The notes: generated by a model from the letters alone, not told the origin. 64,000 nucleotides of DNA from Dehalococcoidia bacterium (GCA_034433305.1 DAOUAM010000028.1:44699-108698), one strand, 5' to 3'; positions 8,865-46,824 are shown, counted from the first letter of the stretch. Numbers and translations are program-made.

Positions 8865-8902
8865 GCGTCGCAGTGGTGGCGCGCCCCTGGTGCGGCGGGC
8901 GG

Positions 8903-9217
8903 TCACTCCAGCCTGACGGCGGTGCCGTAGGCCAGGATTTCGGATGCGCCGCTCATGACAACCGATGTGGAAAGCCGGAAGCCGACGATGGCATTGGCCC
9001 CCATACGCTCAGCTTCCTGCACCATCCTGGCAATGGCATACTCCCGGGACTCGCTCAGGAGCTGAGTGTACTCCTTGATTTCGCCCCCGACGAGGCCCCG
9101 CAGCGCGGCCACTATGTCCCTGCCCAAGTGGCGCGCCCGAATGGCATTGCCCTTGGCGAGGCCCAGCACCTCGACTATGCGCTTGCCTTCCACTGTGTCA
9201 GTCGTAACAACTATCAT
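8903..9217 (-). CDS. YbjQ / UPF0145 family protein
   Basis: MIVVTTDTVEG, GRDIVAALRGLVGGE, AERMGANAIVG, EILAYGTAV. Confidence 0.9.
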   Translation of the reverse strand: MIVVTTDTVEGKRIVEVLGLAKGNAIRARHLGRDIVAALRGLVGGEIKEYTQLLSESREYAIARMVQEAERMGANAIVGFRLSTSVVMSGASEILAYGTAVRLE

Positions 9218-27705: not shown

Positions 27706-28152
27706 TCACGCGCTCTGCTCGAGCTGACTGGCTGCCTCCTGGCTGGCCTTTATGCGCTCAACAAGGTTGGCGATGCTGGTGGCATCCAGGATGGCGCGGA
27801 CGGCGTCCTCGACCACCTTCCAGATCTCCCTCTGGGCGCAGGAGGAGAACTGGCCGCAGACGCCAAAGTCGTCCAGGCAGTTCACCGGCGTCTGGCTGCC
27901 TCCCAGATAGGTCATCACCATGCCCATGCTGATCTCGGAAGGGTCCATGGCCAGCACATGGCCGCCCTGTGGGCCGCGGAAGCTCCGCACCAGCCCATGC
28001 TTGCCGAGTATGTTCAGCAGGCGCGCCAGGTAAGGCTCCGGTATCCCTTTCCGCTGTGCAATGTCCGACGTGTGGACAGGGCCCTGGCCGGCATGTTCGG
28101 CCAGGTCCACCAGCGCCCGCACGCCATAGTCAACCTGAATCGGAATGTGCAT
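27706..28152 (-). CDS. Rrf2-family transcriptional regulator with three C-terminal Cys (IscR/SufR-like)
   Basis: VDYGVRAL, IPEPYLARLL, SFRGPQGG, C-x6-C-x5-C. Confidence 0.92.
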   Translation of the reverse strand: MHIPIQVDYGVRALVDLAEHAGQGPVHTSDIAQRKGIPEPYLARLLNILGKHGLVRSFRGPQGGHVLAMDPSEISMGMVMTYLGGSQTPVNCLDDFGVCGQFSSCAQREIWKVVEDAVRAILDATSIANLVERIKASQEAASQLEQSA

Positions 28153-28173
28153 GGCCAATCCCCCAGCCCGGAC

Positions 28174-32370: not shown

Positions 32371-32393
32371 TTGTTGATTAAAATAGTCAACAA
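32371..32393. promoter_or_regulatory. Probable Rrf2 (IscR-type) operator in front of sufB
   Basis: TTGTTGA-TTAAAATAG-TCAACAA inverted repeat, resembling the IscR type-1 core TGACT-N-AGTCA; lies just downstream of the suf promoter. Confidence 0.7.
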
Positions 32394-32402
32394 CCAGAGC
32401 TA

Positions 32403-32431
32403 ACTATAGCATCGGGCTGAGCGGGTGTCAA
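32403..32431 (-). promoter_or_regulatory. Sigma70-type promoter of the suf operon
   Basis: TTGACA (32431-32426), 17 nt, TATAGT (32408-32403). Confidence 0.75.
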
Positions 32432-32479: not shown

Positions 32480-33370
32480 TCAGCCCCGCAGCAGCTCCCT
32501 CATCAGCACCCTGGCCGCCCCGGCGTCCACCTCCAGGGCAACCCGCACGTTGCCGTTGCCATAGCTGGCCGTCGTCTTGCCCAGCTTCTCGCCCTCCTGG
32601 ACTTCCACCGCCACCGTGGCCTGCCTGTACTTCAGCAGGCCCGGCTGGACGGCGGCGGCCACCGCCAGCGGGTCGCACAGGTGGTACGCGCCACCAGGGT
32701 GGGCCTGGAACCAGCCGGCCAGGAGCTTCTGGGCAAGCTGCTCGGACCTGGAGGGGCCAGCAATCCATGCCAGGTCCTGCTCCGTCAGGTAGGTCTGAAG
32801 GCACACGTCCAGCCCGACCAGGGTGATGGGCACGCCGGAGGCGAAGACGGCGCTGGCGGCCAGCGGGTCGTTGTAGATGTTGAACTCAGCATAGGGCGTC
32901 ACGTTGCCCGGCACCTCCACGGCCCCGCCCATGACGATGATGTGGCTTATCCACTCTTTGAGACGCGGCTCCCTGGCCATGGCGCGGGCCACGTTGGTCA
33001 GCGGGCCGAGGGTGATGAGCACCAGCTCACCGGCGAAGGAGTAGGCCAGGCTTATAAGGTACTCCGGGGCGCGTAGCGGCCGAGGCGTCGCCTGCGCCCT
33101 GGGCAGCCTCACGGTGAGGCCGCGAGAGCCATGGAAGTAGTAGGCGTAGTGGAACCGGCCACGCATGGGCCTGGCCGCGCCCCGTGACACAGGCATGTGG
33201 GGCTGGCCCAGGTACTCCATCAGGTCCAGGGCGTTGCGGGTCACGTGGGACAGGGCGCCGTTGCCGCCCACCGTCGTGAGGCCCTGGATGTCCAGCTCCG
33301 GGCTGTGGAGGGCCATCATCAGGGCCAGGGCGTCGTCGGTGCCCGGGTCGGTGTCTATGACGACCTTCAT
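32480..33370 (-). CDS. Nucleoside hydrolase (IU-NH family)
   Basis: MKVVIDTDPGTDDALAL, TTVGGN, GPLTN, MGG, AEFNIYNDP, LCDPLAVA; ATG 33370. Confidence 0.92.
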   Translation of the reverse strand: MKVVIDTDPGTDDALALMMALHSPELDIQGLTTVGGNGALSHVTRNALDLMEYLGQPHMPVSRGAARPMRGRFHYAYYFHGSRGLTVRLPRAQATPRPLRAPEYLISLAYSFAGELVLITLGPLTNVARAMAREPRLKEWISHIIVMGGAVEVPGNVTPYAEFNIYNDPLAASAVFASGVPITLVGLDVCLQTYLTEQDLAWIAGPSRSEQLAQKLLAGWFQAHPGGAYHLCDPLAVAAAVQPGLLKYRQATVAVEVQEGEKLGKTTASYGNGNVRVALEVDAGAARVLMRELLRG

Positions 33371-34344
33371 GCTCTCACCCGCTCCACCCCGACTTTCCCT
33401 CTTCCTGCTGCGAAGGCCTCCCACACCTGGCGCGAGGTGTACCTGAAGCTGATGCCCAACTCACGTTTGGCCTTTTCGGTGCTGGCTACCCATGGGTAGC
33501 GGATGAAGTCCAGGCCGCAGGACGGCGAGTCCGACTGCAAGCGCAGCCTCCAGGTGGCCTCCGTCAGCCAGTACAGCAGCGGGGCCGGCAGGCGCACCAC
33601 CCGACGGCCCAGCATGGCCGCCATCTCGCTCCAGCATATGGCGCCGTCGCCTGCCACGTTGTACACACCGGAGACGGGCCGCAGCAGGCAGCGCAGCATG
33701 ATGTCCAGCAGGTCGTCCTCGTGGACGAACTGCATGGGCGGGTCACTTCCGGCGATGCCCACCAGCACGGACCTGGTGAAGGCGCGGGAGATGAAGTTGT
33801 CGGTCTGCGGCCCCATGACCGGGCAGGCCCGCAGCACGGCCATGGTGACCGCCGGGTGTTCTTCATGGAACGCGGCCAGCAGCCTCTCCACCTCCACCTT
33901 GTCCTCTCCGTACTGGAAGCCCTTCACCGGCCGCATGGGGGCTTCCTCGGTCAGCAGGCCGGGGTTGTCGGGATGAGCGCCGTACACTGTGGTGCTGCTC
34001 AGGTAAAGGATGTGCCTCACGTTGGCCCTGGCGCAGGCGTCCAGGACATTGGCGGCGCCGTCCACGTCCACGCGGCGTATGGCCGCGCGACCGTGGCCCG
34101 GGCGCAGAACGAAGGCCAGGTGCGCCACGGCCTCGATGCCATGCCGGGCCAGCACGTCGCCCAGGGGCGCGGTCACATCTTGGCGCAGGAACTCCACCCT
34201 GGCAGAAGGGGCCTGCGCTGGCGTGCGCACATCTATTGCCAGGACGTGCTCCACCGACGGCTCGCGCTGGAGCCGCTGGAGGAGCCTGGAGCCGATGTAG
34301 CCAGAAGCGCCGGTTACGGCAACTCGCCTGAAGCCGTCACTCAT
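33367..34344 (-). CDS. Extended SDR, NAD-dependent epimerase/dehydratase family
   Basis: VTGASGYIG, YLSSTTVYG, YGEDK (YxxxK), MQFVHEDD. Confidence 0.9.
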   Translation of the reverse strand: MSDGFRRVAVTGASGYIGSRLLQRLQREPSVEHVLAIDVRTPAQAPSARVEFLRQDVTAPLGDVLARHGIEAVAHLAFVLRPGHGRAAIRRVDVDGAANVLDACARANVRHILYLSSTTVYGAHPDNPGLLTEEAPMRPVKGFQYGEDKVEVERLLAAFHEEHPAVTMAVLRACPVMGPQTDNFISRAFTRSVLVGIAGSDPPMQFVHEDDLLDIMLRCLLRPVSGVYNVAGDGAICWSEMAAMLGRRVVRLPAPLLYWLTEATWRLRLQSDSPSCGLDFIRYPWVASTEKAKRELGISFRYTSRQVWEAFAAGRGKVGVERVRA

Positions 34345-34705
34345 TGACGGAGTCCGTGAAGTCGAACCTGAGGGTGCCCAGGCCGGGGACGTCGAAGCCC
34401 ATGCCTATCTTGTGAGGCCCCGGCGCCAGCGTGACGCCCTCGACGCGCACGGTGATGCTCTTGTTCATGGCCAGGGTGAAGGTCTTCTCCCTGGAGACCT
34501 CGCTGAAGGCGGTGCGGACGCCGTCCAGCACGAACCAGGACGCCTCGGGCGGGACCTCCTGGCCGTCCACAGTGAGGGGCCACATCTTGTGGGCGTAGCC
34601 CGACCCCATGCCGTTCTTCAACTGGAACTCAAACCCGCCGGCGACGTTCTTGAGGCTCTGCTTCACGTAGAGCCTGCGCAGAAGGAAGCCAGGCACTGTT
34701 ACCAT
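34337..34705 (-). CDS. Hypothetical protein, about 122 aa, predicted beta-rich
   Basis: Codon bias matches the neighbours; overlaps the downstream SDR start; VPGFLLRRLYVKQSLKN, LTVDG, LAPGPHKI; no catalytic motif recognised. Confidence 0.75.
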   Translation of the reverse strand: MVTVPGFLLRRLYVKQSLKNVAGGFEFQLKNGMGSGYAHKMWPLTVDGQEVPPEASWFVLDGVRTAFSEVSREKTFTLAMNKSITVRVEGVTLAPGPHKIGMGFDVPGLGTLRFDFTDSVNE

Positions 34706-34768
34706 ATCCAAGCGTCTCCTGGTGCATGCTCAGGGCCTGGTCTAGGATAGCGGGATGATGGGCGCAGT

Positions 34769-35434
34769 TCAAGAGCGCGCCTGGCGCATGCGATAGATGG
34801 AAAGCTCGGCCTCCACCACGTCGGGCGGCAGCGGGTTGACCTTGCCCAGCAGCAGGGCATGGACGTATATCTGGGCGACGCGCTCGGTGAGGGCGCAGAT
34901 GTCCAGGGCCTCGCGGAGGTCGCGGCCCACGCCCACGGCGCCGTGGTTGCGGATGAGGGCAGCCTTGCGCTCGCCCAGGGCGGCGCACACTTTGTCGGCC
35001 AGCTCCTGGGTGCCCGGGAAGGCGTACTCGGAGACCCTGACAGGCCCGCCCATGAGGACCATCATCTCGTCAATGAGCGGGGGTATGTCCAGGCCGGCCA
35101 CCGCCGCCACGCTGGAGAATACCGCATGGGTGTGAATGACAGCCCCCACGTCGGGCCTGGCCCGGTAGATGGCTATGTGCAGCAGCGACTCCGAGGACGG
35201 CGCCAGGTAGCCCTCCACCGTCTCCACGTCGAAGTCAATCACTACGATGTCGTCCTCTTTCAGGGCACCGTAGTCCTTGCCGGTGGGGGTGATGGCAAGC
35301 AACTCCCGCTGGTCCTCTGGCGGCAGCCGCATGCTCACGTTGCCGCTGGTGCCCGCCACCAGGCCCAGTTGGGCCATCCGCTGCGACGCCTCGACCACCG
35401 CTCGCTTCTGCTCTTGCCAGCGACTCACGGTCAA
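34769..35434 (-). CDS. Class II aldolase/adducin family (fuculose-1-phosphate-aldolase-like)
   Basis: AGTSGNVS, ITPTG, PSSESLLHIAIY, HTH, NHG metal ligands; TTG at 35434, 9 nt after AAGGAGG. Confidence 0.92.
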   Translation of the reverse strand: MTVSRWQEQKRAVVEASQRMAQLGLVAGTSGNVSMRLPPEDQRELLAITPTGKDYGALKEDDIVVIDFDVETVEGYLAPSSESLLHIAIYRARPDVGAVIHTHAVFSSVAAVAGLDIPPLIDEMMVLMGGPVRVSEYAFPGTQELADKVCAALGERKAALIRNHGAVGVGRDLREALDICALTERVAQIYVHALLLGKVNPLPPDVVEAELSIYRMRQARS

Positions 35435-35460
35435 GCTGCCACGCCTCCTTTCAGGCCTGG

Positions 35461-36963
35461 CTACAGGCCCAGCGCCTTCAGCCCCTCGGCGACCTGGAGC
35501 CAGCGCTGGTAGTGCTCCTGGTACTCCGCAGCCGTGGCCTCGTCCGGCTCCAGCACCTGGAGGCTGGGCGCCATGCTGGCGGCGGCCTCCTCCAGGGAGC
35601 GGAAGTCGCCCAGGCCGACGCGGGCACACAGACAGGCCCCCAGGGCGCTGGCCTGCGGCACGGGCGAAAGGCCGGTCTCCCTGCCCAGCACGTCCTTCAG
35701 GATGCTCACGAAGGTGGGAGTGCGCGTCATGCCGCCACCCAGGGCCAGGGTCCGCGCCGGGCCGCCCCAGAGCCGCTCCACCTGCTCCAGGTTTGCCCTG
35801 ATGGCGAAGGCGAAGCCCTCCAGGGCAGCGCGGACCAGGTGCCCACGGCCCACCTCGCTATAGGTCAGCGGCACCGGCAGGACGAAGCCGCCCGGCCTCA
35901 TGCCCACGGCGGCCATGTCCATGCGGGCGTGGCCCAGGAAGCCGACGACGCCCTCGGCGCCCGGGGCCACCGTGGCGGCCAGCCTGTCCAGCTCGCAGTA
36001 GTCAGGCCTGCCGCCAGACAGGGCCTCGGCCAGCCAGCGGTAGGCATTGCCCACGTCGCCGGCGTTGCCCTCCAGCACCCAGGCACCCTCCGTCAGGAAG
36101 CAGCCAGCCCAGGTGCTGCCTTGAGGCGACAGCACGGGCTGGCTGGTGACCATCTGGAGCGGCGCGCTCCAGCCGGCGACGATACCGACCTGGCCCGGCC
36201 GAGCTATGCCCAGGCCCAGCAGGCCGCACTGGGTATCGGCGCCCGCCACGAACACGGGCACGCCGGCGGGCAGGCCCAGTTGCTCAGCGGCGGCCGCTGG
36301 CAGTCTGCCGGCGCGGGTGCCAGCCGCCAGCAGCAGCACCTGGCCGATGGCGGGAAGGCCCAGGGCGTCCATCAGGTCGGCGCACCAGCGCCGGCGGTGG
36401 ATGTCCAGCAGCCCGGCCTCGCCAGCCAGGGTAGGCTCGCTGGCCTGGACGCCCGTGAGGCGCCAGACCAGCCAGTCCGCCAGCGTCAGCACGGAGGCTA
36501 TTCTACCACAGGCCTCCGGGCGGTGTAGCTGGAACCAGCGCAGCTTGGCAGGAGCGAAGAAGAAGGACGGCACATGGCCGGTGGTCCGGTATACCCTTTC
36601 CCGCATGGCGTCGTCTATGGCCGCGCCCTCGAAGACCGCCCGCAGGTCCAGACTGGGGCCGACGTATAGCTCGGAGCCATCGGAGGCCAGGAAGGCGACA
36701 GCCTGCCGCTGGCTGGTCACACTGATGGCGGCCACCCGTGGCCCGGAGGCGCTGGCCGCCTTCAGGGCCTCGCCGGCAAGCTGGCAGAAGGTGCCCCACA
36801 GCCACGCAGGGTCGAACTCCCGGGCCAGGGGCGAGGCGTCCGGCACGGCGCGATAGCTCCAGGCGCGGGCGCTCTGGGCCACCAGCCGCGACTGGCGGTC
36901 GAAGACCAGGCACCGGGCCGCGCTGGTGCCGGCGTCCAGGACCAGGATGTAGCTGCTAGCCAT
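35461..36963 (-). CDS. FGGY-family carbohydrate kinase (YoaC/LsrK-like)
   Basis: VLDAGTS, VTSQRQ, AGADTQ, RAALEG, GGGMTR, ALGA. Confidence 0.9.
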   Translation of the reverse strand: MASSYILVLDAGTSAARCLVFDRQSRLVAQSARAWSYRAVPDASPLAREFDPAWLWGTFCQLAGEALKAASASGPRVAAISVTSQRQAVAFLASDGSELYVGPSLDLRAVFEGAAIDDAMRERVYRTTGHVPSFFFAPAKLRWFQLHRPEACGRIASVLTLADWLVWRLTGVQASEPTLAGEAGLLDIHRRRWCADLMDALGLPAIGQVLLLAAGTRAGRLPAAAAEQLGLPAGVPVFVAGADTQCGLLGLGIARPGQVGIVAGWSAPLQMVTSQPVLSPQGSTWAGCFLTEGAWVLEGNAGDVGNAYRWLAEALSGGRPDYCELDRLAATVAPGAEGVVGFLGHARMDMAAVGMRPGGFVLPVPLTYSEVGRGHLVRAALEGFAFAIRANLEQVERLWGGPARTLALGGGMTRTPTFVSILKDVLGRETGLSPVPQASALGACLCARVGLGDFRSLEEAAASMAPSLQVLEPDEATAAEYQEHYQRWLQVAEGLKALGL

Positions 36964-37945
36964 GGGGCGGCCACACCTCGGGGTTGACCAGGCGCAGGGG
37001 GCGCTCGCCGCGGACGAAGCGCAGGATGTCTTCGGCCATCATCTCCGAGTGGCGCTGGACGGTCTCGGCGGTGGCGCCGCCGATGTGGGGCGTCAGCACC
37101 AGGTTGTCCAGGCCCAGCAGGGGACTGCCCGGCGGCAGCGGGTGGCTCTCGAAGACGTCCAGGGCTGCGCCGGCCATGCGTCGGCACCGCAGGGCCTCCA
37201 CCAGGGCTTCCTGCCGGACGATGGCCGAGGCCGAGGTATTGACCAGGTAGGCCGTGGGCTTCATCAGCGCCAGGCGGCGGGCGTCCAGCAGGCCCTCGGT
37301 CTCGGGCGCCAGCGGCGCGTGGATGGACACGAAGTCCGACAGCGCCAGCAGTTCGTCCAGGGCCACAAGCCGCACGCCTTCTGGCGGAGCCGCCACGTAG
37401 GGGTCATGGGCCAGGACCTCCATGCCCAGGGCCATGCCCATGGCCGCCAGCCTGCGCCCGATGGCCCCCAGGCCGATGATGCCCAGGGTCTTGCCGCAAA
37501 GCTCCACGCCGCGCATGGCGATGTAAGGCTCTACCGGGTCAGCCCAGCGCCCCTGGGCCACGTAGCTATGGGCCGCCGGGATGCGCCTTGCCAGCGCCAG
37601 CATCAGGCCCAGCGCGTGCTCGGCCACGGCCTGGGCGTTCCTGGCCGGCGTGTTGACCACGACGACGCCATGCCGGGTGGCCGCCTCTAGGTCCACGTGG
37701 TTGGTGGCGGCCCGGCAAATGCCCACGAACTTGAGACCCGGCGCCTGCTCGAACATCTCCTCGAAGACGAAGTCTGACTCCACCACCAGGATAGAGATGC
37801 CCTGCTCGTGGAGACGACGGGCCAGGTCATCAGGGTCCTGAAGTCGGCGCGTGTCCAGCCAGCTCTCGTAGCTGACCTCCAGCCGCTGGCGCAGGCGCTC
37901 CAGTTGGGCAGGACTGAAGGGGGCCAGTACCAGCGCGCGCCACAT
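36956..37945 (-). CDS. D-isomer-specific 2-hydroxyacid dehydrogenase (YoaD/SerA-like)
   Basis: NTPARNAQAVAE, GKTLGIIGLGAIG, VSIHAPL, VNT, AALDVF, TPHIGGAT; ATG 37945 overlaps the hpnE TGA. Confidence 0.92.
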   Translation of the reverse strand: MWRALVLAPFSPAQLERLRQRLEVSYESWLDTRRLQDPDDLARRLHEQGISILVVESDFVFEEMFEQAPGLKFVGICRAATNHVDLEAATRHGVVVVNTPARNAQAVAEHALGLMLALARRIPAAHSYVAQGRWADPVEPYIAMRGVELCGKTLGIIGLGAIGRRLAAMGMALGMEVLAHDPYVAAPPEGVRLVALDELLALSDFVSIHAPLAPETEGLLDARRLALMKPTAYLVNTSASAIVRQEALVEALRCRRMAGAALDVFESHPLPPGSPLLGLDNLVLTPHIGGATAETVQRHSEMMAEDILRFVRGERPLRLVNPEVWPPHG

Positions 37946-39318
37946 CAGACTCTGGCCGCCAGCGCGTCGGCGGCGAGCAGGCCGCTGCGGACCGCGCCCT
38001 CCATGGTGGAGGGCCAGCCCGTATCGGTCCACTCCCCGGCCAGGAACAGGTTAGGGATGGGCGTGACCTGCGGCAGCCGGCGGCAGGCGACTCCCGGCAG
38101 GCAGCGGAAGGTGGCACTGAGCTGCTTGACTATGAGGAGCTTGTCTACGCGGGCCTCTCTGGCCCTGGAGAAGAGCCTCGCCATCTCGCTGACGAAAAGC
38201 TCCCGCAGCTCGTCCTTGGGCCTGTCAGCGAAGTCCCAGGCCCCGCTGACGGAGATGCAGAGGTACTGGCCCTGGTGGCCGCTGGCCCCCTGGATGCGGC
38301 TCCTGTTGAACACCCACTGCACAGGGCTTCCCAGGAAAGCCAGGAACTCCTCGTCCATGACTGGCCGGTCATACCAGATGTGGACGTTGACGATGGGAGA
38401 GGAAGCGAGGCCGGCAGCCCTGGCGAAGAACTCATCGCCGGCCAGGTCTGGAGGCAGGACAGACAGGAGCACGTCGTAGGGCAGGGCGCTGACGCAGGCA
38501 TCGGCCTCCAGCGCGGCGCCGCTGGAAAGCACCACCCTGGCAAGGCGGCCATCCTCCACGACCAGCGACTTCACCGCCTGGCCCAGCAGCAGCCTGCCTC
38601 CACGGGCCTCGATGGCGCGGCGGGCCGGCCTCGCCGCCAGCGACGACAGCCCCACACGGAAGTAGCCCAGGTTGGCATCTGCTGGCCGCTTCATCAGGCC
38701 CTCCTGGAAGACCATGAGGGCCATGTCGGCGTTGACCTCACGCACGTCGTCATTGAGGGTGGGCAGGAGAATGAAGTCCCAGAGGTTGTTGATGGCGCGC
38801 TCCGTCTGGTGGTGGCGCCTGAGCCACTGGTATGCGGTCTGGCCGTCCAGCTCCTGGCGGCGCCGGGAGCGGTCCGTGAGCCTGGCCCGGACCAGCCCGT
38901 AGAGGGCCAGGAGCTTGTCCTTCAGGCCCAGGTGGGGGTACAGGAGCAGCGACGGCAGCAGATGGAGCGGCCCCAGCGCCGGCACGCTGGCCAGCACGCC
39001 GCGCTTGCCGTTGAGGACGACCTCCACATGGGGCCGCCGCTGCAGGAAGGCACCTTCGTAGGCGCCCAGGGCCTTGAGGAAACCAATGAAGGCAGTGCAG
39101 CAGCCCATGAAGACGTGCTGGCCGTTGTCCACCTCGCACTGGACTTCCCGGTCATAGAAGGAGAAGACGCGGCCTCCCAGGAAGGGGCGCTTTTCCACCA
39201 GGGTCACGCCGTAGCCCAGGTCCAGCAGGCGGCAGGCAGCGGACAGGCCGGCCAGGCCGCCGCCCAGCACGGTTACCGTCTTAGCCCTGGGAGTGATGCT
39301 ATCCGGCTTCCAGCCCAT
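37945..39318 (-). CDS. hpnE: Hydroxysqualene dehydroxylase HpnE
   Basis: VLGGGLAGLSAA, LGGRVFSF, VDNGQHVFMGCC, LAGEWTDTGWPSTMEGAVRSG; follows hpnC and hpnD. Confidence 0.93.
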   Translation of the reverse strand: MGWKPDSITPRAKTVTVLGGGLAGLSAACRLLDLGYGVTLVEKRPFLGGRVFSFYDREVQCEVDNGQHVFMGCCTAFIGFLKALGAYEGAFLQRRPHVEVVLNGKRGVLASVPALGPLHLLPSLLLYPHLGLKDKLLALYGLVRARLTDRSRRRQELDGQTAYQWLRRHHQTERAINNLWDFILLPTLNDDVREVNADMALMVFQEGLMKRPADANLGYFRVGLSSLAARPARRAIEARGGRLLLGQAVKSLVVEDGRLARVVLSSGAALEADACVSALPYDVLLSVLPPDLAGDEFFARAAGLASSPIVNVHIWYDRPVMDEEFLAFLGSPVQWVFNRSRIQGASGHQGQYLCISVSGAWDFADRPKDELRELFVSEMARLFSRAREARVDKLLIVKQLSATFRCLPGVACRRLPQVTPIPNLFLAGEWTDTGWPSTMEGAVRSGLLAADALAARV

Positions 39319-40160
39319 AGTTTCGCAGCGAGGAATATTTTCTTGCGTCGGCTCAGGCCGATGCGGCCCTGGAACACGTTGAACCCCGAGGCCTCGATCC
39401 TGTCCAGGATGGCGCTGTAGACGCCGTGGAGCGTGGCAGGGCAGGCGCGGGACTCGGGCGACAGCAGCGGTATTAGCTGCCGGCCACTGTCGAAGTAGCG
39501 GCGCGCCCGGGCGGCCTGGGACCGCATCAGCCCCTGGAAGGCCTCGTTCATGACGCCAGCCATCAGCTCCTGCTCAGAGTAGCCGAAAGAGGCCATCTCG
39601 TCCAGTGGAATGTAAATGCGCCCCCGCTGGGCATCCTCTTTGACGTCCCGCAGGATGTTGGTCAACTGCATGGCCAGGCCCAGGTCCACGGCGTACTCCC
39701 GCGCCCGGGGGTCCTGGTAGCCGAAGACCTCGATGCACACCAGCCCGACCACCGAGGCGACCTTGTAGCAGTAGGCCCGCAGCTCCTGGAAGTCCTGGAA
39801 GCGCGTCCAGGTCAGGTCCATCTCCACGCCCTCTATGATCTCTTCCAGGTAGCTGGCCGGGACGTGGAAAGAGCGGCAGGCGTCGCTCAGCGCGGCAAAG
39901 ACCGGGTCCTGGATGCTGGTGGCGTCGCCGTCCAGGCTGGCCGCCAGGCGCTGGCGCGTCAGAGCGAACCGCCGGCGCTTTTCGTCCAGGGGCAGGTCCT
40001 CGTCGGCGATGTCGTCGCAGAGGCGGCAGAAGGCATAGGCGGCGTAGATGGCGCGGCGCTTGCGGGCAGGGAGAGTCCTGAAGGCGTAGTAGAAGTTCTT
40101 CGCGTTCTCCTTCGCGATTTGCTGGCAGTGATCGTATGCCAGTTCCAGTTGGCTGACCAC
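39273..40160 (-). CDS. hpnD: Presqualene diphosphate synthase HpnD
   Basis: AKNFYYAF, YAFCRLCDDIAD, GVEMDL, YCYKVASVVG, QLTNILRDVKEDAQRGRIYIP. Confidence 0.93.
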   Translation of the reverse strand: MVSQLELAYDHCQQIAKENAKNFYYAFRTLPARKRRAIYAAYAFCRLCDDIADEDLPLDEKRRRFALTRQRLAASLDGDATSIQDPVFAALSDACRSFHVPASYLEEIIEGVEMDLTWTRFQDFQELRAYCYKVASVVGLVCIEVFGYQDPRAREYAVDLGLAMQLTNILRDVKEDAQRGRIYIPLDEMASFGYSEQELMAGVMNEAFQGLMRSQAARARRYFDSGRQLIPLLSPESRACPATLHGVYSAILDRIEASGFNVFQGRIGLSRRKKIFLAAKLWAGSRIASLPGLRR

Positions 40161-40197: not shown

Positions 40198-41085
40198 CTA
40201 GACCCTGCCCAGAAGCTTTAACTTCAAGGTGCTGCGGAACATGATGGCCAGCTTGGTGGCCCTGGACAGCGCTGGACGTCTGCTGAGGACATCGTAGCCC
40301 TGCTTTTCGATGGCCTCCAGCACCTTCATGCCCCCCAGGGTAAAGAGGGCCACGTCCAGCTTCAGGCTTCCCTCAAGGGTATCCACCAGCTTGAGACCGC
40401 TGACGAAAAGCTCCCGCGCCCGGCCGACCTCGAAGGCCATCATCTGGCGGAAGGCGTCGTTGGCTACTCCCCTGGCCAGCATGTCCTCGGAGTAGCCGAA
40501 GCGCTCCATGTCCTCCTGGGGGATGTAGACCCGGCCCATGGCAAAGTCTCGGGCCACGTCCTGCCAGAAGTTGGCCAGTTGCAGCGCCGTGCAGGTGCAG
40601 TCCGACAGCGCCTGGCGCTCCGGGTCGCGGTAGCCAAAGACGTAGAGCACGATGTGGCCCACGGGATTGGCCGAGTGCTGGCAGTAGTACTCCAGGTCGG
40701 CGTAGGTGCGGTAGCGGCTGACGGCCTGGTCCATCCGGTTGGCCTTGACAAGCCTGAGGAACGGCTCCATGGGGATGTCGAAGTCCCGGATGGTCTGCTG
40801 TAACGCGACCATGTAGGGGTGCCTGGGTGCGCCGTCGTAGCAGCGGCGTAGCTCGGCCTCCCAGAAGTCCAGCGCCTCCAACCTGCTGCCCTGGAACTCG
40901 TCGCCCAGGTCGTCCACGAAGCGGCAGAAGGCATAAACGGCGTAGATGTGCTTGCGCTTCTCCCTGGGCAGCAGCCAGGAGCCCACAGTGAAATTCTCAT
41001 AGTGGGCCCTGGCCAGCCGCTCGCAGCGGGCGTAGCCTTCCTCCACGGTGCAGCCTTGAGGAATACTCGCCAGCAGTGAGTCCAT
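40198..41085 (-). CDS. hpnC: Hydroxysqualene synthase HpnC
   Basis: AHYENFTVGS, YAFCRFVDDLGDE, YCQHSANPVG, ALQLANFWQDVARD. Confidence 0.94.
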   Translation of the reverse strand: MDSLLASIPQGCTVEEGYARCERLARAHYENFTVGSWLLPREKRKHIYAVYAFCRFVDDLGDEFQGSRLEALDFWEAELRRCYDGAPRHPYMVALQQTIRDFDIPMEPFLRLVKANRMDQAVSRYRTYADLEYYCQHSANPVGHIVLYVFGYRDPERQALSDCTCTALQLANFWQDVARDFAMGRVYIPQEDMERFGYSEDMLARGVANDAFRQMMAFEVGRARELFVSGLKLVDTLEGSLKLDVALFTLGGMKVLEAIEKQGYDVLSRRPALSRATKLAIMFRSTLKLKLLGRV

Positions 41086-41093
41086 GGCTCCGG

Positions 41094-41570
41094 TCAGACT
41101 CCCATGACCTGGACAATGGCCTCACGGTGCAGCCGCTTGTCGTCAAGCTCCACCATGAAGATGCGCTGCCAGGTGCCCAGCGGCAGTTTGCCGTCAATGA
41201 CGGGCAACGTCTCGCTGGTGCCCAGGACCAGGTGCTGGCAGTGGGAATGCCCGTTGGGGCACTCGTCCTCGTGCATGTGTACGGTGCGGACGCTGAAGTC
41301 GTTGTGGCGGTAGTGGGCATTCCTGGGCGAGATGCGCTCCAGCAGGTTGACCAGGTCTATCAGGAGAAGAGGCTCGTTTTCCTGGATGGTGATGGCCGCC
41401 GTCGTATGCTTGGAAAAGACAAGGCACATGCCGTTCTGGACGCGCGACTGCCTCACACACTCCTCCACGCGGTCCGTGATGTCCACGAACTCGGGTGCAG
41501 TGGTGAAGTCCACGCGCAGGGTGAAGACGCATGTCTTGAAAGAAGCCACTGAGGCCTCGGTTACTCTCAT
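41094..41570 (-). CDS. yjbQ: YjbQ / UPF0047 family protein
   Basis: FVDITD, HTTAAITIQENE, NGHSH, LGTWQRIFMVELD. Confidence 0.9.
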   Translation of the reverse strand: MRVTEASVASFKTCVFTLRVDFTTAPEFVDITDRVEECVRQSRVQNGMCLVFSKHTTAAITIQENEPLLLIDLVNLLERISPRNAHYRHNDFSVRTVHMHEDECPNGHSHCQHLVLGTSETLPVIDGKLPLGTWQRIFMVELDDKRLHREAIVQVMGV

Positions 41571-41623: not shown

Positions 41624-43714
41624 CTACCATATTGGCAGTAGCTTTTTCAATCTCCCGCGCCGCGCGATGGGCTGCTGGAAGTAAATCTTGCTCCTGGTGG
41701 CCGCCCCATTGGTGGCAAGGGCCAGGGACTCGCCCTTCAGGAACCTCCGGTAGCGCCCCAGGGCCATGAGCGGCCAGTAGTTCCTGTACATGTGGTAGTT
41801 GATCATGAACCCGGCCGGCAACTCCGCGCCCTGGTAGCCAGGGTCTTCGGGCGTCAAGTAGCGCTCCAGGCGCTGGCCCACGCCATACCCGGGGAAGCCT
41901 GTGCCAGTGAAGTAAGGCTCGTCCCAGGAGCCATCTGGCATCTGGGTACGTACCAGGAACTCGGCGCCCCGGTGCGCCGCCGAGTGGTCACCCTCGCCAG
42001 CCGCCAGCAGGGCCAGCAGGGCCCAGGCCGTCTGAGAGGCCGTGCTTGGCCCCCTGCCCCGGAAGGTCGGGTCCACGTAGGACGCGCAGCTTTCGCCCCA
42101 GCCGCCGTCAAGGTTCTGGTGCTCCACGACCCACTGGACGGCGCGGCGCACGTATTCTGCCCTCATGTCCATTCCCAGGGCCTCGAAAGCCGGCAGGACC
42201 GCGCCCGTGCCGTAGATGTAGTTGACGCCCCAGCGCCCGAACCAGGGGCCGTCCTCCTCCTGCTCGGACAGCACGTACCTGAGGGCGCTGGCAACGGCGG
42301 GATCGTCGGCAGTGTAGCCAAGCTGGCCGAGCATTTCCAGCACGTGGGCGGTGACGTCCACGCTGGGCGGGTCCAGGGCCTCCCCGAAGTCGTTAAAGGG
42401 AATCTTGGCTATGAGGATCTTGGTGTTGTCCTTGTCGAAGGAGGCCCAGCCGCCGTTCTTGCTCTGCATGCCCAGGATCCAGCGCACGGCCCTGGCTATG
42501 GCCTCGTCCTTTCCCGCGTCTGGCGGCAACTGGACCCTGTGGATAGCCATCACTATCTCGGAGGTGTCGTCCAGGTCGGGGTACATATCGTTATGGAACT
42601 CGAAGGCCCAGCCGCCGGGCGGCACGTTGCCTGCCTTGACTTGCCAGTCGCCTGCCTCAAGTACCTGCTCCCTGAGCAGCCAGCGGGCGGCCCTTACCAG
42701 CGCCGGATGGTCGGGCCTGAGGCCGGAGTCCAGCAGGGCAATCATGGCAAGGCAGGTGTCCCACAGCGGCGAGATGCACGCCTGGATGCGCAGCGTATCG
42801 CCTTCTTCGATGGAGAAGGTGGTGAAGCCTCGCAGCCCCCGGGCCATGACGGGGTGGTCCAGGGGATAGCCCAGGCAGTGCAGGGCCATGAGCGAGTATA
42901 CCCAGGGAGGCTGGATGCCGCCCCAGCTACCGTCGGCCTCCTGGTGCTCCAGGACCCACTGCTCGGCCCGCTTGATGGCCTGGGCGCGGGTAGGCTTCCA
43001 GGGCAGCTTCTCCAGGTGCCGCAGGATGATGTCTGCGGCGTAGAACAGTGTCTCCCAGCCCACCAGCCGCTTGGGCCGTTCTATGGAGTAGTCTATTTCA
43101 CCGCGCGGCTGAGGGTATAGCTCGTCTATGCTCGCCCACTCGGGCACCGACTTGACGGGCTTCTTGTCGAACAGGATGAGGAGCGGCACAATAGTTGCCC
43201 TGGCCCAACTGGCGAAGTCGTAGATGGTGATGGGGAACCAGTTGGGCAGGAGCATGATCTCGGCGGGGATGATGGGCACACCGCGCCAGTCCCACTGCCC
43301 GAAAAGCGCCAGCCATATCTTGGTGAAGACCCGCGTCTTGGGCACCCCGCCCTTGGACAGGATAAACTCCCTGGCCTTGCGCATGAAAGGCTCGTCGGGA
43401 GAGACGCCGGCCAGCTTCAGGGCAAAGTAGCACTCCGTGGAGGTGCTGAGGTCCCCGGGCGCGCCGTAGAACTGGCCCCAGGTGCCGTCTTCCCGCTGCC
43501 GACTGATGATGTGGTTGGCCAGCTTCCGCCACATCTCTCTGTCAGGGATGCCCAGGAACTGGGTCAGCAACAGGTACTCGGCCTCCATGGTGGGGTTGGA
43601 CTCCAGCTCGCCCCACCAGTAGCCATCGGGGTACTGGACCCGTAGCAGGAACTCCTGCGACCTCTGTATAGCCACATCCAGCGCGGCAAGTCTCTCCATT
43701 GCAGCCTCTGCCAT
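41624..43714 (-). CDS. shc: Squalene-hopene cyclase (HpnF)
   Basis: YWWGELES, QW repeats (QREDGTWG, QEADGSWGG, QSKNGGW, QNLDGGWGE), WDT, catalytic YPDLDDT (DxDD), RWGVNYIYGT, GTGFP. Confidence 0.97.
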   Translation of the reverse strand: MAEAAMERLAALDVAIQRSQEFLLRVQYPDGYWWGELESNPTMEAEYLLLTQFLGIPDREMWRKLANHIISRQREDGTWGQFYGAPGDLSTSTECYFALKLAGVSPDEPFMRKAREFILSKGGVPKTRVFTKIWLALFGQWDWRGVPIIPAEIMLLPNWFPITIYDFASWARATIVPLLILFDKKPVKSVPEWASIDELYPQPRGEIDYSIERPKRLVGWETLFYAADIILRHLEKLPWKPTRAQAIKRAEQWVLEHQEADGSWGGIQPPWVYSLMALHCLGYPLDHPVMARGLRGFTTFSIEEGDTLRIQACISPLWDTCLAMIALLDSGLRPDHPALVRAARWLLREQVLEAGDWQVKAGNVPPGGWAFEFHNDMYPDLDDTSEIVMAIHRVQLPPDAGKDEAIARAVRWILGMQSKNGGWASFDKDNTKILIAKIPFNDFGEALDPPSVDVTAHVLEMLGQLGYTADDPAVASALRYVLSEQEEDGPWFGRWGVNYIYGTGAVLPAFEALGMDMRAEYVRRAVQWVVEHQNLDGGWGESCASYVDPTFRGRGPSTASQTAWALLALLAAGEGDHSAAHRGAEFLVRTQMPDGSWDEPYFTGTGFPGYGVGQRLERYLTPEDPGYQGAELPAGFMINYHMYRNYWPLMALGRYRRFLKGESLALATNGAATRSKIYFQQPIARRGRLKKLLPIW

Positions 43715-43752: not shown

Positions 43753-44496
43753 TCAGCAGCCTGTGACATGGGCGAGGAAACGCGCCAGCGCCGCCCTGGC
43801 GGTCCTGGCCTGAGTGCCCAGGTGGACGAGGGCAGGCACATCGGCTGGCCTGGCCAGGACATACCTTGCCACGTCCCACCAGCCACGCCTGCCATTGCTG
43901 GACACCACCTGGCCCACAAAAGCTGGAAGCGATTGGTCGGCAGTATCCAGGACGCAACGCGCCACCATGTGGGCAATCCCCAGGTCCATGGCGGCCTGGC
44001 TGACCCAGTAGCCCTCCATATCCACCACCGCCACCGGGAAGCTCTCGCCAATTTTGTGCTTGAGAGAGCTACTGGCTACAAGCTCAGGCGCGGTCAGGCA
44101 GCCGCAGGAAGCATACCCACGCCCGTTGCCATCGTTCACACGCAAAGGCCTACCCTGGACGGCGTGGCATCGCGCCTTCTCGGGCTGCCACTGCTCCTGT
44201 GGCCCATCCACGGCAAACAGCCTGTCGCACAGGACCACGTCACCGGCCTTGAGGCCTGGCCTGACGGCGCCAGCGAACCCCACAGATAGGACCACATCGG
44301 GGCGCCACTCCTGGGCCAGGTACCGTACCGCCCTCAGCGCGCGCTCCCGGCCTATGCCGGCCTCCACTACCATAACCTCCGGCACTGATGGCGACCTGAA
44401 GAGGCACAGGCTGTCGCGCCGGGCCACCACGGCGAAACCTCCAGCGCCCAGGTAATCGCTCACTTCGTCCCTCATGGCGGCAAGGATGGCTAGCAC
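43753..44496 (-). CDS. hpnG: Hopanoid-associated nucleosidase/phosphorylase HpnG
   Basis: PNP/MTAN fold: GIGRERA, SVGFAGAV, VDMEG, RCVLD; lies between hpnH and shc. Confidence 0.82.
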   Translation of the reverse strand: MLAILAAMRDEVSDYLGAGGFAVVARRDSLCLFRSPSVPEVMVVEAGIGRERALRAVRYLAQEWRPDVVLSVGFAGAVRPGLKAGDVVLCDRLFAVDGPQEQWQPEKARCHAVQGRPLRVNDGNGRGYASCGCLTAPELVASSSLKHKIGESFPVAVVDMEGYWVSQAAMDLGIAHMVARCVLDTADQSLPAFVGQVVSSNGRRGWWDVARYVLARPADVPALVHLGTQARTARAALARFLAHVTGC

Positions 44497-44524: not shown

Positions 44525-45550
44525 CTATCCGGCGCTGACACCGCTGTTCTGAAGGGCGCCGCCCTTGATCATCTTCAGGGCGTCGGCCGGGTTGCTCAGG
44601 GCGCCAAAGATGGAGGCCGACTCGAAGCCGCAGTGCATGAGGCAGTTGGCGCACCTGGGGTCCTTGCCCACGCCGTAGTGCTCCCACAGGTCTTCCCTGA
44701 GCAGGTCAGAGATGCTCTGGGTATGCTTGTCGCCCAGCAGGTAACAGGGCTGGCGCCAGCCCAGGATGGTATAGGTCGGGTTGGACCAGGCAGTACACTG
44801 GTACTCCCGCTTCCCCCGCAGAAAGTCCAGGTACAGAGGGTTATTGTAGAAGCGCACCTTGTGCTTGGGGTCCAGGACGCGCTGGAAGACCTTCCTGGCC
44901 TGCTGCCGCGAGATGAACAGGTTCTGGTTGGGCACGGAGTCGAACTGGTAGCCTGGCGACACCATGCAGCCCTCGACGCCCATGTCCGTCAGCATCTTGA
45001 ACATCTTGACCAGGTCTGCCTCGTCCACCCCGTTGAACACCGTGGTGTTGGTGGCGACCCGGTAGCCACGCTCCAGGGCAACCTTGATGCCCCTGACGGC
45101 TATCTTGAACACCCCCTTGCGGTACACCGACCTGTCGTGGGCCTCTTCCATACCGTCCAGGTGGACCACGAAGCAGAAGTACTTGGACGGCGGCACCTTC
45201 TTCATCACCCGCTCCATGAGCAGGGCATTGGTACACATGTAAACGAACTTCTTCCGGGCCACCAGTCGGTTGACTATCTCGTCAATCTGCGGGTGCATGC
45301 TTGGCTCGCCGCCGGCGATGGAGACGATAGGAGCGCCGGACTCATCCACGGCTGCCAGGCACTGCTCCACCGTCAGCATGCGGTCTATGACGGACTCGTA
45401 CTCGCGTATGCGGCCACAGCCAACGCAGGCCAGGTTGCAGGCCTCCAGCGGCTCGAGCATAGTCACCAGGGGGAACCGTTTGCGGCCAGAGAGCCTGTTC
45501 TTGACAATGTACCAGCCTAGGCGTACTGCCATCTCCATCGGTCTGCCCAT
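44525..45550 (-). CDS. hpnH: Adenosylhopane-forming radical SAM enzyme HpnH
   Basis: FPLVTMLEPLEACNLACVGCGRI (CxxxCxxC), SIAGGEP, LGWRQPCYL, DPRCANCLMHCGFE. Confidence 0.95.
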   Translation of the reverse strand: MGRPMEMAVRLGWYIVKNRLSGRKRFPLVTMLEPLEACNLACVGCGRIREYESVIDRMLTVEQCLAAVDESGAPIVSIAGGEPSMHPQIDEIVNRLVARKKFVYMCTNALLMERVMKKVPPSKYFCFVVHLDGMEEAHDRSVYRKGVFKIAVRGIKVALERGYRVATNTTVFNGVDEADLVKMFKMLTDMGVEGCMVSPGYQFDSVPNQNLFISRQQARKVFQRVLDPKHKVRFYNNPLYLDFLRGKREYQCTAWSNPTYTILGWRQPCYLLGDKHTQSISDLLREDLWEHYGVGKDPRCANCLMHCGFESASIFGALSNPADALKMIKGGALQNSGVSAG

Positions 45551-45597: not shown

Positions 45598-46686
45598 TCA
45601 GTGGTGCCTGACCAGGAGGAAGCGCGCCAGTTCCTCTACCTGATCACGATAGTCCCGGGGGATGTCCACGCCAGCCAGTGCCTGGAGCGCCCGGTCGCAG
45701 TACTGGGAGGCCAAGGCCTGGGCATATTCCGGCACACCGGCCCGCTCCATGATCTCCAGCACCGTGGCGACCTGCTCGTCGCCCAGCTCGTCCATGGCAT
45801 ATACCTGGAGCAGCCGCTGCCTGTCCTTCCCTCTGGTGCGGGACATGGCACACACCACAGGGAAGGAGTTCTTCTTGCGGCGTATATCCGCGCCCACAGG
45901 CTTGCCGGTTGCCTCCTCCACGCCCCACACACCCAGTATGTCGTCCCGTACCTGGAACGCGTACCCCAACGCTCTGCCACACTCTCTGAATGCTTCTACC
46001 GTCACCTTGTGGCGCGTGCCGATAAGGGCACCAATATTCAGGGAGCACCTGATAAGCGCCCCGGTCTTGCGGGAAATCAGGTCCATATAATCATCGAGGC
46101 TGATGTCCCGGCGGCCCTCAAAGACCATATCCAGGTACTGGCCTTCAATCATCTCCAGATAGGCCTCGGTCAGCAGCCTGCCCACGGCGATGGCCGTGTC
46201 CAACTCCACCCCGGCATCCAGGAGTCCCTTCAGGGACATGTCAGCCACCAGTCTGAGGACGTTGCCCGCCACCAGGGCTTTGGCATCGCCCCAAACGGCC
46301 CACAGAGTCGGCCGATGGTGGCGCGTGGCATCCCTGTCCTGGATGTCGTCGTGAATGAGCGAGAAGTTGTGAATGAGTTCCAGGGCAACGGCAGCGGGCA
46401 TGCCCCTGGAGATGGGGCCGCCCGTGGCCTCGCAGGCGAAGAGGCATAGCGATGGGCGCAGGCCCTTCCCCTGAGTAGCCACGCAGGGCTTGCCATTGAC
46501 ATCCACCCAGCCCATGAAGTACCGCAGCATGTCGTACACGCCGAGGCCCTGGGCGGACAGGGCTTTGCGGAGGGCAATGTCTAGCTCGCCCCTGTACTTC
46601 CCCAGTAATCTCGGCAGGGGCTCGACCCGCTTGTCAACGGTGTCAACTGAAGTCTTGGTCAAGCAGACGACCCGCGCAGGAACCAA
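45598..46686 (-). CDS. Polyprenyl diphosphate synthase (FPP/GGPP synthase)
   Basis: GKGLRP, HNFSLIHDDIQD..RHHRPT (FARM), GQYLD, KTGAL, FQVRDDILG (SARM); exact start uncertain. Confidence 0.93.
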   Translation of the reverse strand: MVPARVVCLTKTSVDTVDKRVEPLPRLLGKYRGELDIALRKALSAQGLGVYDMLRYFMGWVDVNGKPCVATQGKGLRPSLCLFACEATGGPISRGMPAAVALELIHNFSLIHDDIQDRDATRHHRPTLWAVWGDAKALVAGNVLRLVADMSLKGLLDAGVELDTAIAVGRLLTEAYLEMIEGQYLDMVFEGRRDISLDDYMDLISRKTGALIRCSLNIGALIGTRHKVTVEAFRECGRALGYAFQVRDDILGVWGVEEATGKPVGADIRRKKNSFPVVCAMSRTRGKDRQRLLQVYAMDELGDEQVATVLEIMERAGVPEYAQALASQYCDRALQALAGVDIPRDYRDQVEELARFLLVRHH

Positions 46687-46795: not shown

Positions 46796-46824
46796 ATCCT
46801 AGCACCCGATTGGCGATGTGTCAA
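46796..46824 (-). promoter_or_regulatory. Sigma70-type promoter of the hopanoid gene run
   Basis: TTGACA (46824-46819), 17 nt, TAGGAT (46801-46796). Confidence 0.65.

Follow-up and report, generated by a model that had tools for sequence, protein, structure and literature searches.

A squalene-hopanoid operon extended at its 3′ end by six genes for predicted soluble enzymes was identified on the minus strand of a 64,000-nucleotide stretch of a Dehalococcoidia bacterium genome (GCA_034433305.1; DAOUAM010000028.1:44699-108698), hereafter the window. The six genes, here called the cassette, encode in order of transcription a D-2-hydroxyacid dehydrogenase family member (2-Hacid_dh), an FGGY kinase, a class II aldolase family protein (Aldolase_II), a 122-amino-acid (aa) protein with a DUF6379 domain, an extended short-chain dehydrogenase/reductase (SDR), and an IU-type nucleoside hydrolase. 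Gene order in related genomes argues that the operon truly runs on into these six genes as one transcript and that they are no hopanoid-specific invention, and it presents the cassette as a composite of separable soluble units, namely dehydrogenase-kinase, aldolase, DUF6379-SDR, and hydrolase. The cassette probably handles a small sugar and not a lipid. The explanation favored here, to which we give a probability of roughly 40%, is salvage of soluble pentoses, deoxypentoses, or pentitols, partly derived from nucleosides and co-expressed with hopanoid synthesis; gene families, conserved catalytic residues, the anatomy of the operon, and its spread over genomes are observed directly, and the substrate, the order of the steps, and the reason for co-expression are what we infer.

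Gene calls combined with family searches placed 14 codirectional genes between positions 46686 and 32480, flanked by a divergent nuo operon upstream and a suf operon downstream (Table 1). An earlier note on this DNA, made from the sequence alone, had described the hpnE stop codon as overlapping the start of the dehydrogenase gene, and the following genes as joined by overlaps or by gaps of about 60 nt at most. Both descriptions were borne out. The TGA of hpnE (37947-37945) overlaps the ATG of the dehydrogenase gene (37945-37943), giving the TGATG read from the sequence at 37947-37943. The dehydrogenase and kinase genes then overlap by 8 nt, 26 nt containing an AAGGAGG ribosome-binding site separate the kinase and aldolase genes, and the largest gap (63 nt, or 57 nt with a TTG start) lies between the aldolase and 122-aa protein genes. 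The 122-aa protein and SDR genes overlap by 8 nt, making the latter translationally coupled to the former, and the SDR and hydrolase genes share a 4-nt ATGA overlap.

The same note had placed the only clear promoter upstream of the prenyl synthase gene (46824) and had seen no internal terminator. A consensus scan agreed, in that no minus-strand promoter-like site was found between 46796 and 32431. The next site on that strand (32431-32403) sits just past the hydrolase stop codon, before sufB, and marks the 3′ boundary of the operon. The terminator scan yielded no credible candidate within the 14-gene run; the sole match there (39633-39619) has a 5-bp stem and lies inside hpnD, and the region as a whole contained 5 terminator-like matches, compared with 6.9 in shuffled sequence. 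The GC content of positions 34000 to 38000 is 0.69 to 0.72, compared with ∼0.63 to 0.65 in the flanks. Horizontal acquisition was considered for this rise and rejected, as the GC content at third codon positions (GC3) is in line with that of neighboring genes and the rise lies in codon positions 1 and 2. It reflects amino-acid composition and not foreign origin.

To place the arrangement in a wider context, related loci were collected. The kinase has hundreds of relatives at 50 to 60% identity, and a scan with the kinase alignment, restricted to one genome per GTDB species, returned 80 loci, all from Dehalococcoidia or Chloroflexota and including SAR202. Of these, 59 had at least 8 kb of upstream DNA, which was searched by tblastn with the window proteins. 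The gene-neighborhood comparison that the earlier note had proposed came out positive, with the cassette directly behind squalene or hopanoid genes in 46 of the 59 species genomes. Upstream of the cassette, shc or hpnH was present in 31 loci, only squalene-side genes (ispA, hpnC/D/E, sometimes hpnG) in 15, and none of these in 13; co-occurrence of the cassette with shc/hpnH is thus not strict at the locus level. Both of the loci that were chosen by squalene-hopene cyclase (SHC) alone displayed the order nuo, ispA-hpnH-hpnG-shc-yjbQ-hpnD, cassette, suf, and a relative with 90% identity (L081) carried the identical 14-gene order. The polyprenyl synthase gene kept its position in 34 related loci.

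Distances at the junctions were more informative than gene order. The nuo and suf operons, which are unrelated to the cassette, flank the region across the same species range, and because this backbone is very stable, neighborhood conservation is weak evidence by itself; only the tightness of the junctions exceeds it. The median gap to the dehydrogenase gene was 20 nt from hpnE and 61 nt from hpnD, and the hpnD/E-to-dehydrogenase gap was ≤100 nt in 34 of 43 loci, comparable to intra-operon junctions. In contrast, the gap from the hydrolase or SDR gene to sufB was ≤100 nt in none of 27 loci, always exceeding 120 nt and often containing inserted genes. Judged by these distances, a large clade seems to have conserved the co-transcription of the hopanoid genes and the cassette.

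The cassette is nevertheless separable from the hopanoid genes, predates its link with them in Dehalococcoidia, and outlasts that link. In the kinase tree, an outer clade (Dehalococcoidales and others) holds dehydrogenase-kinase(-aldolase) genes only, next to unrelated genes. One group of this clade carries them after purF/purM/purH, a glycosyltransferase gene, and a gene for a nicotinamidase-phosphoribosyltransferase fusion, and before GlcD/GlcF-like genes, and a second group after radical S-adenosylmethionine (SAM) and DUF362 genes. In one outer-clade locus (L056, 12293-16504), dehydrogenase-kinase-aldolase genes are followed by GlcD-like and GlcF-like genes (flavin adenine dinucleotide [FAD] oxidase and CCG) and a second FGGY kinase gene, neighbors hinting that the aldolase step may be followed by reactions of glycolaldehyde, glycolate, or lactaldehyde.

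The main clade had the hopanoid link from its ancestor on, and at least five lineages nested in it lost shc/hpnH at the locus and kept the cassette. Reduced upstream orders include nuo, ispA-hpnD, cassette (L014, L018, and L029), ispA-hpnG-hpnD (L044 and L071), and ispA-hpnG-dehydrogenase (L068), and these losses within hopanoid-linked clades look like clean in-place deletions. A search with the SHC of L035, a sister of L044 and L071, found no SHC on the chromosomes of the latter two, in a search whose best 120 matches covered only about one-quarter of the positive-control genomes and whose collection apparently did not include the OZ-series assemblies. In group A (L020 to L027 and L038), dehydrogenase-kinase-aldolase-122-aa protein-SDR genes form an isolated operon amid unrelated genes. 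The earlier note had held that its proposal would suffer if orthologs usually occurred without shc/hpnH in relatives. This was found in part: shc/hpnH were not within 8 to 10 kb of the cassette in 28 of the 59 loci, the outer clade carries its dehydrogenase-kinase(-aldolase) genes in unrelated contexts, and there are the losses in place.

The composition of the cassette also varied. The most stable units were dehydrogenase-kinase (gap of ≤100 nt in 71 of 72 loci) and 122-aa protein-SDR (52 of 54), and 122-aa protein-SDR(-hydrolase) genes were confined to the main clade, with its ancestral hopanoid link. Some loci have no 122-aa protein-SDR pair, L025 and L027 have no aldolase gene in the cassette, and L011, L012, L017, and L026 carry the dehydrogenase-kinase pair only. 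The SHC-anchored locus L087 (13771-15568) carries dehydrogenase-aldolase-122-aa protein-SDR-hydrolase genes and no FGGY kinase gene, with a gap of 133 nt at the kinase position. Genes inserted inside the cassette elsewhere are heterogeneous, coding for a classical SDR, an alpha/beta hydrolase, a coenzyme A (CoA) transferase, a dihydrodipicolinate synthase-like protein, and an LmbE-like protein. No consistent theme was identified around the hopanoid-free cassette loci, whose neighbors range from purine/NAD genes and radical SAM plus DUF362 genes to glycosyltransferase family 4, CDP-alcohol transferase, and trehalose genes.

None of the six cassette proteins has a predicted transmembrane segment. 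The label 2-hydroxyacid dehydrogenase used in the earlier note proved misleading for the first of them. When aligned to 1wwk, McyI, and 2cuk, the protein keeps the catalytic His (His287), but Ala239 and His268 occupy the positions of the catalytic Arg and Glu, respectively. Among 72 orthologs the Arg column never contains Arg, and Glu itself appears in the Glu column of 1 ortholog, with Ala in 2 and His, Trp, or Gln in the other 69. The family fold and NAD fingerprint are retained (GLGAIG, with the Asp of an HDPY motif conserved). With the catalytic Arg and Glu lost, a 2-hydroxy acid is an unlikely substrate.

The kinase has conserved catalytic Asp residues (alignment A1). Its nearest characterized relative is the autoinducer 2 (AI-2) kinase LsrK (PDB 5ya0; E value, 6.8e−56), and it is also related to xylulokinase. 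It is not an LsrK equivalog (NF008187, 225 bits against a cut-off of 528) and scores far under every equivalog cut-off. The aldolase-family protein is about equally close to FucA, DrdA (6btd; 116.9 bits), and the archaeal ribulose-1-phosphate aldolase model, and also matched PDB 4c24; its best NCBIfam scores were for ribulose-1-phosphate aldolase (157.9; cut-off, 300) and L-ribulose-5-phosphate 4-epimerase (153.9; cut-off, 251). The metal and phosphate residues of FucA are kept. The hydrolase is RihC-like (201 against a cut-off of 382 for the RihC model), with none of the RihA/B/C equivalogs reached.

The 122-aa protein, listed in the earlier note as unknown, can now be recognized as a homolog of the C-glycoside deglycosidase (CGD) beta subunit. 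Together with the dehydrogenase it is the most strongly conserved of the cassette proteins (median identities across loci, 64% against 62%), and its identity to close homologs is 66 to 81%. It matched PF25653, the CGD beta-subunit family just under its cut-off, and the PDB chains 8umc_B and 8qvc_B. An AlphaFold2 model (predicted local distance difference test [pLDDT] score, 87.8) gave a beta-sandwich, and the top 17 Foldseek matches in the PDB were all CGD beta subunits (probability, 1.0; template modeling [TM] score, ∼0.7). In other bacteria, DUF6379/PF25653 domains are fused to GH4 glycosidases (P0303, P0337, and P0319), to HMG-CoA reductase (L085, 6001-7561), and to an IU nucleoside hydrolase whose gene lies in a LacI/PfkB sugar locus (P0336; L082, 5443-6855). 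This variety of sugar-cleaving or NAD(P)-dependent partners suggests that the domain is a general accessory subunit. No common pathway was apparent among the contexts of these distant relatives. The SDR has a Ser-Tyr-Lys triad and an Asp38 that are invariant in 19 orthologs. Its nearest solved structures are MoeE5 and GalE, and it is only distantly related to nucleoside diphosphate (NDP)-sugar epimerases. Like the dehydrogenase, it carries the Asp typical of NAD rather than NADPH binding. Upstream in the operon, the HpnG-like gene is the fastest evolving (median identity, 35%), and its product is best matched by TIGR03468, below the cut-off. It is kept beside the cassette in three species with neither hpnH nor shc at the locus (including L044, 1532-2263, and L068, ∼8235-8933), and the HpnG-like protein may act beyond adenosylhopane.

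In the salvage pathway that we favor, the hydrolase, perhaps together with the methylthioadenosine (MTA) nucleosidase-like "HpnG," would free a sugar from its base, and the NAD enzymes would turn this sugar into a ketose. The FGGY kinase would phosphorylate the ketose, and the aldolase-family enzyme would then cleave or epimerize the product, giving dihydroxyacetone phosphate (DHAP) and a C2 aldehyde, or xylulose-5-phosphate. In one large clade of Dehalococcoidia the cassette would have been joined to the squalene-hopanoid operon at its 3′ end, and the hopanoid link would be one of shared transcription and not of lipid chemistry. A pentose or nucleoside substrate is suggested by the coupling of the hydrolase to the SDR, by the proximity of the aldolase to FucA/DrdA and to ribulose-1-phosphate aldolase, an enzyme of archaeal nucleoside degradation, and of the kinase to LsrK and xylulokinase, by the fusion of DUF6379 elsewhere to GH4 enzymes and to an IU nucleoside hydrolase that has a PfkB kinase as neighbor, by the purine/NAD genes near the outer-clade genes, and by the persistence of the HpnG-like gene at the cassette in loci that have lost hpnH and shc. 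The earlier note had proposed, as its first option, that salvage of SAM-derived nucleosides or their pentoses supports hopanoid synthesis. The salvage half of this option is plausible, but there is no evident reason for the support half. HpnH consumes the 5′-deoxyadenosyl group and HpnG releases adenine only, so that no sugar is left over from hopanoid synthesis that could be salvaged.

Several observations weigh against the salvage explanation. No isomerase gene is present in the operon, and we know of no FGGY kinase that acts on aldoses. The dehydrogenase has lost two catalytic residues, and its step in the pathway is therefore a guess. The aldolase has Asp/Glu at the position of FucA Tyr113, which we take to resemble AraD-type epimerases, so that cleavage and epimerization are both possible. 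About half of the cassette loci, among them those of SAR202, have no hydrolase gene. An Rfam scan of the window and of 14 loci without hopanoid genes returned only tRNAs above threshold, with no S-box or other riboswitch, and neither a riboswitch nor a regulator indicates the substrate. The losses of shc/hpnH were scored at the locus (8 to 10 kb), and copies may exist elsewhere in these genomes. Finally, the tightness of the hpnD/E-dehydrogenase junction across class-level divergence exceeds what would be expected of a neutral neighbor.

That junction could also be read as a sign of lipid chemistry, as in the second option of the earlier note, tailoring of the hopanoid side chain, by which the cassette would modify the ribosyl moiety of adenosyl- or ribosylhopane. 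Two versions can be envisaged. In the first, the SDR, with the CGD beta-like partner holding the bulky aglycone, would reduce ribosylhopane to bacteriohopanetetrol (BHT) or epimerize a side-chain carbon; in the second, a route resembling the DHAP shunt (hydrolase, redox isomerization, kinase acting at C35, aldolase) would yield a C32 hopanoid and DHAP. The operon-tight junction is maintained over deep divergence and recurs in the same layout at the SHC-anchored loci, the 122-aa protein-SDR(-hydrolase) genes do not leave the clade with the ancestral link, and hpnI, hpnJ, hpnK, and hpnO are not in the locus. CGD beta subunits serve enzymes acting on sugars C-linked to large hydrophobic groups, and the lost carboxylate clamp of the dehydrogenase would suit a polyol or ketose-like substrate. 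As the earlier note stated, the enzyme taking ribosylhopane to BHT, the step after HpnG, has no assignment, and this is still so in a review of August 2026. The wider distribution of the cassette weighs against tailoring. The five-gene cassette of group A stands alone, the core pair or triple occurs in contexts without hopanoid genes, and the lineages with in-place losses retained the cassette without shc/hpnH. Moreover, the kinase and 122-aa protein orthogroups were found only in Chloroflexota, whereas BHT producers belong to many phyla, and the cassette is therefore not the general BHT-forming enzyme. The Asp fingerprint of the SDR is of the NAD type, whereas cell-free ribosylhopane reduction reportedly uses NADPH, and no kinase or aldolase is known to us to act on a lipid-bound sugar. 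Side-chain tailoring is thus disfavored and we consider it improbable; the specific proposal that Dehalococcoidia, with the abundant marine SAR202 group among them, use the cassette on the C35 side chain of hopanoids, by the SDR and its CGD beta-like partner or by a lipid-bound DHAP shunt, appears slightly more doubtful again.

A purely positional association has more in its favor, although on balance it too seems unlikely. The cassette would then belong to an unrelated sugar, polyol, or sugar-acid pathway within a stable nuo-isoprenoid-cassette-suf backbone and would have been fused to the upstream operon in compact genomes. The conservation of the unrelated nuo and suf neighbors over the same species range, the other contexts of the cassette with units gained and lost independently, and the assorted unrelated genes inserted inside it in several loci are all as this would predict. 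What it accommodates poorly is the difference between the hpnD/E junction and the suf junction, which is never tight, and the finding that after loss of hopanoid genes the cassette is usually still attached to the remaining ispA, hpnD, or hpnG. This constant partnership with the squalene end (ispA and hpnD/E), seen even without shc/hpnH, could alternatively reflect precursor supply, modeled on the Rhodospirillum MTA-isoprenoid shunt. A SAM- or nucleoside-derived C5 unit (4,5-dihydroxy-2,3-pentanedione [DPD] or a 1-deoxypentulose) would be converted to 1-deoxyxylulose-5-phosphate, or to glyceraldehyde-3-phosphate and pyruvate, feeding the squalene pathway. LsrK phosphorylates a 1-deoxy-pentose-derived diketone at C5, and a dehydrogenase without the carboxylate-binding Arg and an aldolase-family protein with an AraD-like acidic residue would be compatible with such a substrate. 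The idea is drawn entirely by analogy, cassettes are also found at a great distance from isoprenoid genes, and there is no LuxS or MtnA-like gene in the locus; we regard it as highly improbable. Soluble pentose or nucleoside salvage remains our preferred explanation; such a cassette would operate along the lines of the known kinase-plus-aldolase routes for ketoses while fitting none of them.

The operon was compared with known systems. As in the classical hpn clusters of Rhodopseudomonas palustris, Methylobacterium, Burkholderia, Zymomonas, and Streptomyces, hpnC/D/E, shc, hpnH, and an HpnG-type gene follow a prenyl synthase gene; HpnH and HpnE scored above curated cut-offs, the SHC Pfam matches exceeded 450 bits, and two SQS_PSY genes are present. 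Unlike those clusters, it lacks hpnA/B/I/J/K/N/O/P and carries a YjbQ gene and the six-gene soluble cassette at the 3′ end; the cassette SDR is not HpnA (TIGR03466, 43.4 bits against a cut-off of 367.65). The YjbQ/UPF0047 gene between shc and hpnC is kept there in 26 related loci and is a regular operon member. In many shc loci the only SQS_PSY gene is hpnD-like, and hpnC and hpnE are absent from its surroundings (L001, L002, L006, L010, L016, L035, L039, L042, L048, L053, L060, L061, L066, L077, L079, L087, and L088).

Among sugar pathways, the DHAP shunt and 5-deoxyribose disposal (MtnN/MtnK or MtnP, MtnA, and Ald2; DrdK, DrdI, and DrdA) follow a similar logic of nucleosidase or hydrolase, kinase, and class II aldolase leading to DHAP. 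In the present case, however, the kinase is of the FGGY and not the MtnK family, the dehydrogenase-like protein, SDR, and DUF6379 protein are extra, and neither the operon nor L081 has an MtnA/DrdI isomerase gene. The aldolase, which may or may not act on a 1-phosphoketose, has the class II family domain with its metal and phosphate residues and misses all equivalog cut-offs. FucK-FucA, RhaB-RhaD, and AraB-AraD likewise pair an FGGY kinase with an adjoining class II aldolase or epimerase that has an intact metal/phosphate site, and they differ in having a FucI, RhaA, or AraA isomerase, in equivalog scores, and at the Tyr113 position. The CGDs (DgpB-DgpC, CarB-CarC, and DfgA-DfgB) share the beta-subunit fold with the 122-aa protein at weak sequence similarity. 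The coupled partner of the 122-aa protein is an extended SDR rather than a TIM-barrel alpha subunit, and no gene for such a metal-binding subunit was found in the operon, L081, or related loci. The earlier note had likened the dehydrogenase-kinase pair to Bacillus subtilis yoaD-yoaC, in which a 2-Hacid_dh-family protein likewise adjoins an FGGY kinase, citing the motifs TSQRQ (kinase residues 83 to 87) and NAQAVAE (dehydrogenase). Both motifs are present but generic to their families. In contrast to the S-box-regulated yoaD-yoaC, no SAM riboswitch accompanies the pair in the window or in the 14 related loci scanned. The only proposal found in the yoaDC literature is a guess about cysteine degradation.

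Literature searches on the cassette, on DUF6379, on FGGY kinases with 5-deoxyribose, and on hopanoid genes of Dehalococcoidia or SAR202 returned nothing that describes the arrangement, in agreement with the earlier note, which knew of no such hpn cluster; a 2026 survey of gene order around shc makes no mention of such a cassette. It is best filed as a hopanoid gene cluster variant, and two of the enzyme architectures that it contains are unusual. In one, a protein with the 2-hydroxyacid dehydrogenase fold but without the carboxylate clamp is consistently coupled to an FGGY kinase; in the other, a CGD beta-subunit homolog is paired with an SDR in place of a TIM barrel. A conserved operon of shc, hpnH, and an hpnG-type gene makes uncultured Dehalococcoidia, including SAR202, likely producers of extended hopanoids, a point barely mentioned in the literature. 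SAR202 is among the most abundant deep-ocean groups, and this potential matters for the interpretation of hopanoid biomarkers in marine settings. The cassette, which other hopanoid clusters were not seen to carry, also offers a small candidate set for the step after HpnG, although such a role is disfavored by the present evidence. Diagenesis is the usual explanation for C32 hopanols and hopanoic acids; if the C35-trimming version of side-chain tailoring were true, it would be a biological source for them.

Table 1. Features of the 14-gene operon and its 3′ boundary, with positions counted from the first nucleotide of the window
Feature	Position	Strand	Basis or remark
Sigma-70-like promoter site upstream of polyprenyl synthase gene	46796-46824	−	Consensus scan; TTGACA-17-TAGGAT, 10/12 matches, TG extension
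Polyprenyl (farnesyl) diphosphate synthase, operon gene 1	45598-46686	−	PF00348, 192 bits; start codon approximate
hpnH, radical-SAM adenosylhopane synthase	44525-45550	−	TIGR03470, 448.7 bits (cut-off, 225)
HpnG-like MTA-nucleosidase-type protein	43753-44496	−	PF01048; TIGR03468, 103.8 (cut-off, 187.1)
shc, squalene-hopene cyclase	41624-43714	−	PF13243, 508 bits; PF13249, 459 bits
YjbQ/UPF0047 protein	41094-41570	−	PF01894; TIGR00149
hpnC-like SQS_PSY protein	40198-41085	−	PF00494, 245 bits
hpnD-like SQS_PSY protein	39273-40160	−	PF00494, 271 bits
hpnE, hydroxysqualene dehydroxylase	37945-39318	−	TIGR03467, 395.3 bits (cut-off, 283)
Noncanonical D-2-hydroxyacid dehydrogenase family member	36956-37945	−	PF02826, 191.7 bits; PF00389
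FGGY carbohydrate kinase	35461-36963	−	PF00370; PF02782
Class II aldolase/epimerase family protein (FucA, DrdA, or AraD-like)	34769-35434	−	PF00596, 175 bits; TTG start at 35434
122-aa DUF6379 protein, CGD beta-subunit-like fold	34337-34705	−	PF25653, 62 bits; PF19906, 27.4 bits
Extended SDR, NAD-dependent epimerase/dehydratase family	33367-34344	−	PF01370, 105 bits
IU-type nucleoside hydrolase, last operon gene	32480-33370	−	PF01156, 268.5 bits; DTDPGTDD motif
Separate, stronger sigma-70-like promoter site for sufBCD	32403-32431	−	Consensus scan; TTGACA-17-TATAGT, 11/12 matches

Downstream of the operon, the interval from the suf promoter-like site to the start of sufB (32340) contains a perfect inverted repeat (TTGTTGA-N9-TCAACAA; minus strand, 32371-32393), which may serve as an operator for the Rrf2-family regulator whose gene lies at 27706-28158.

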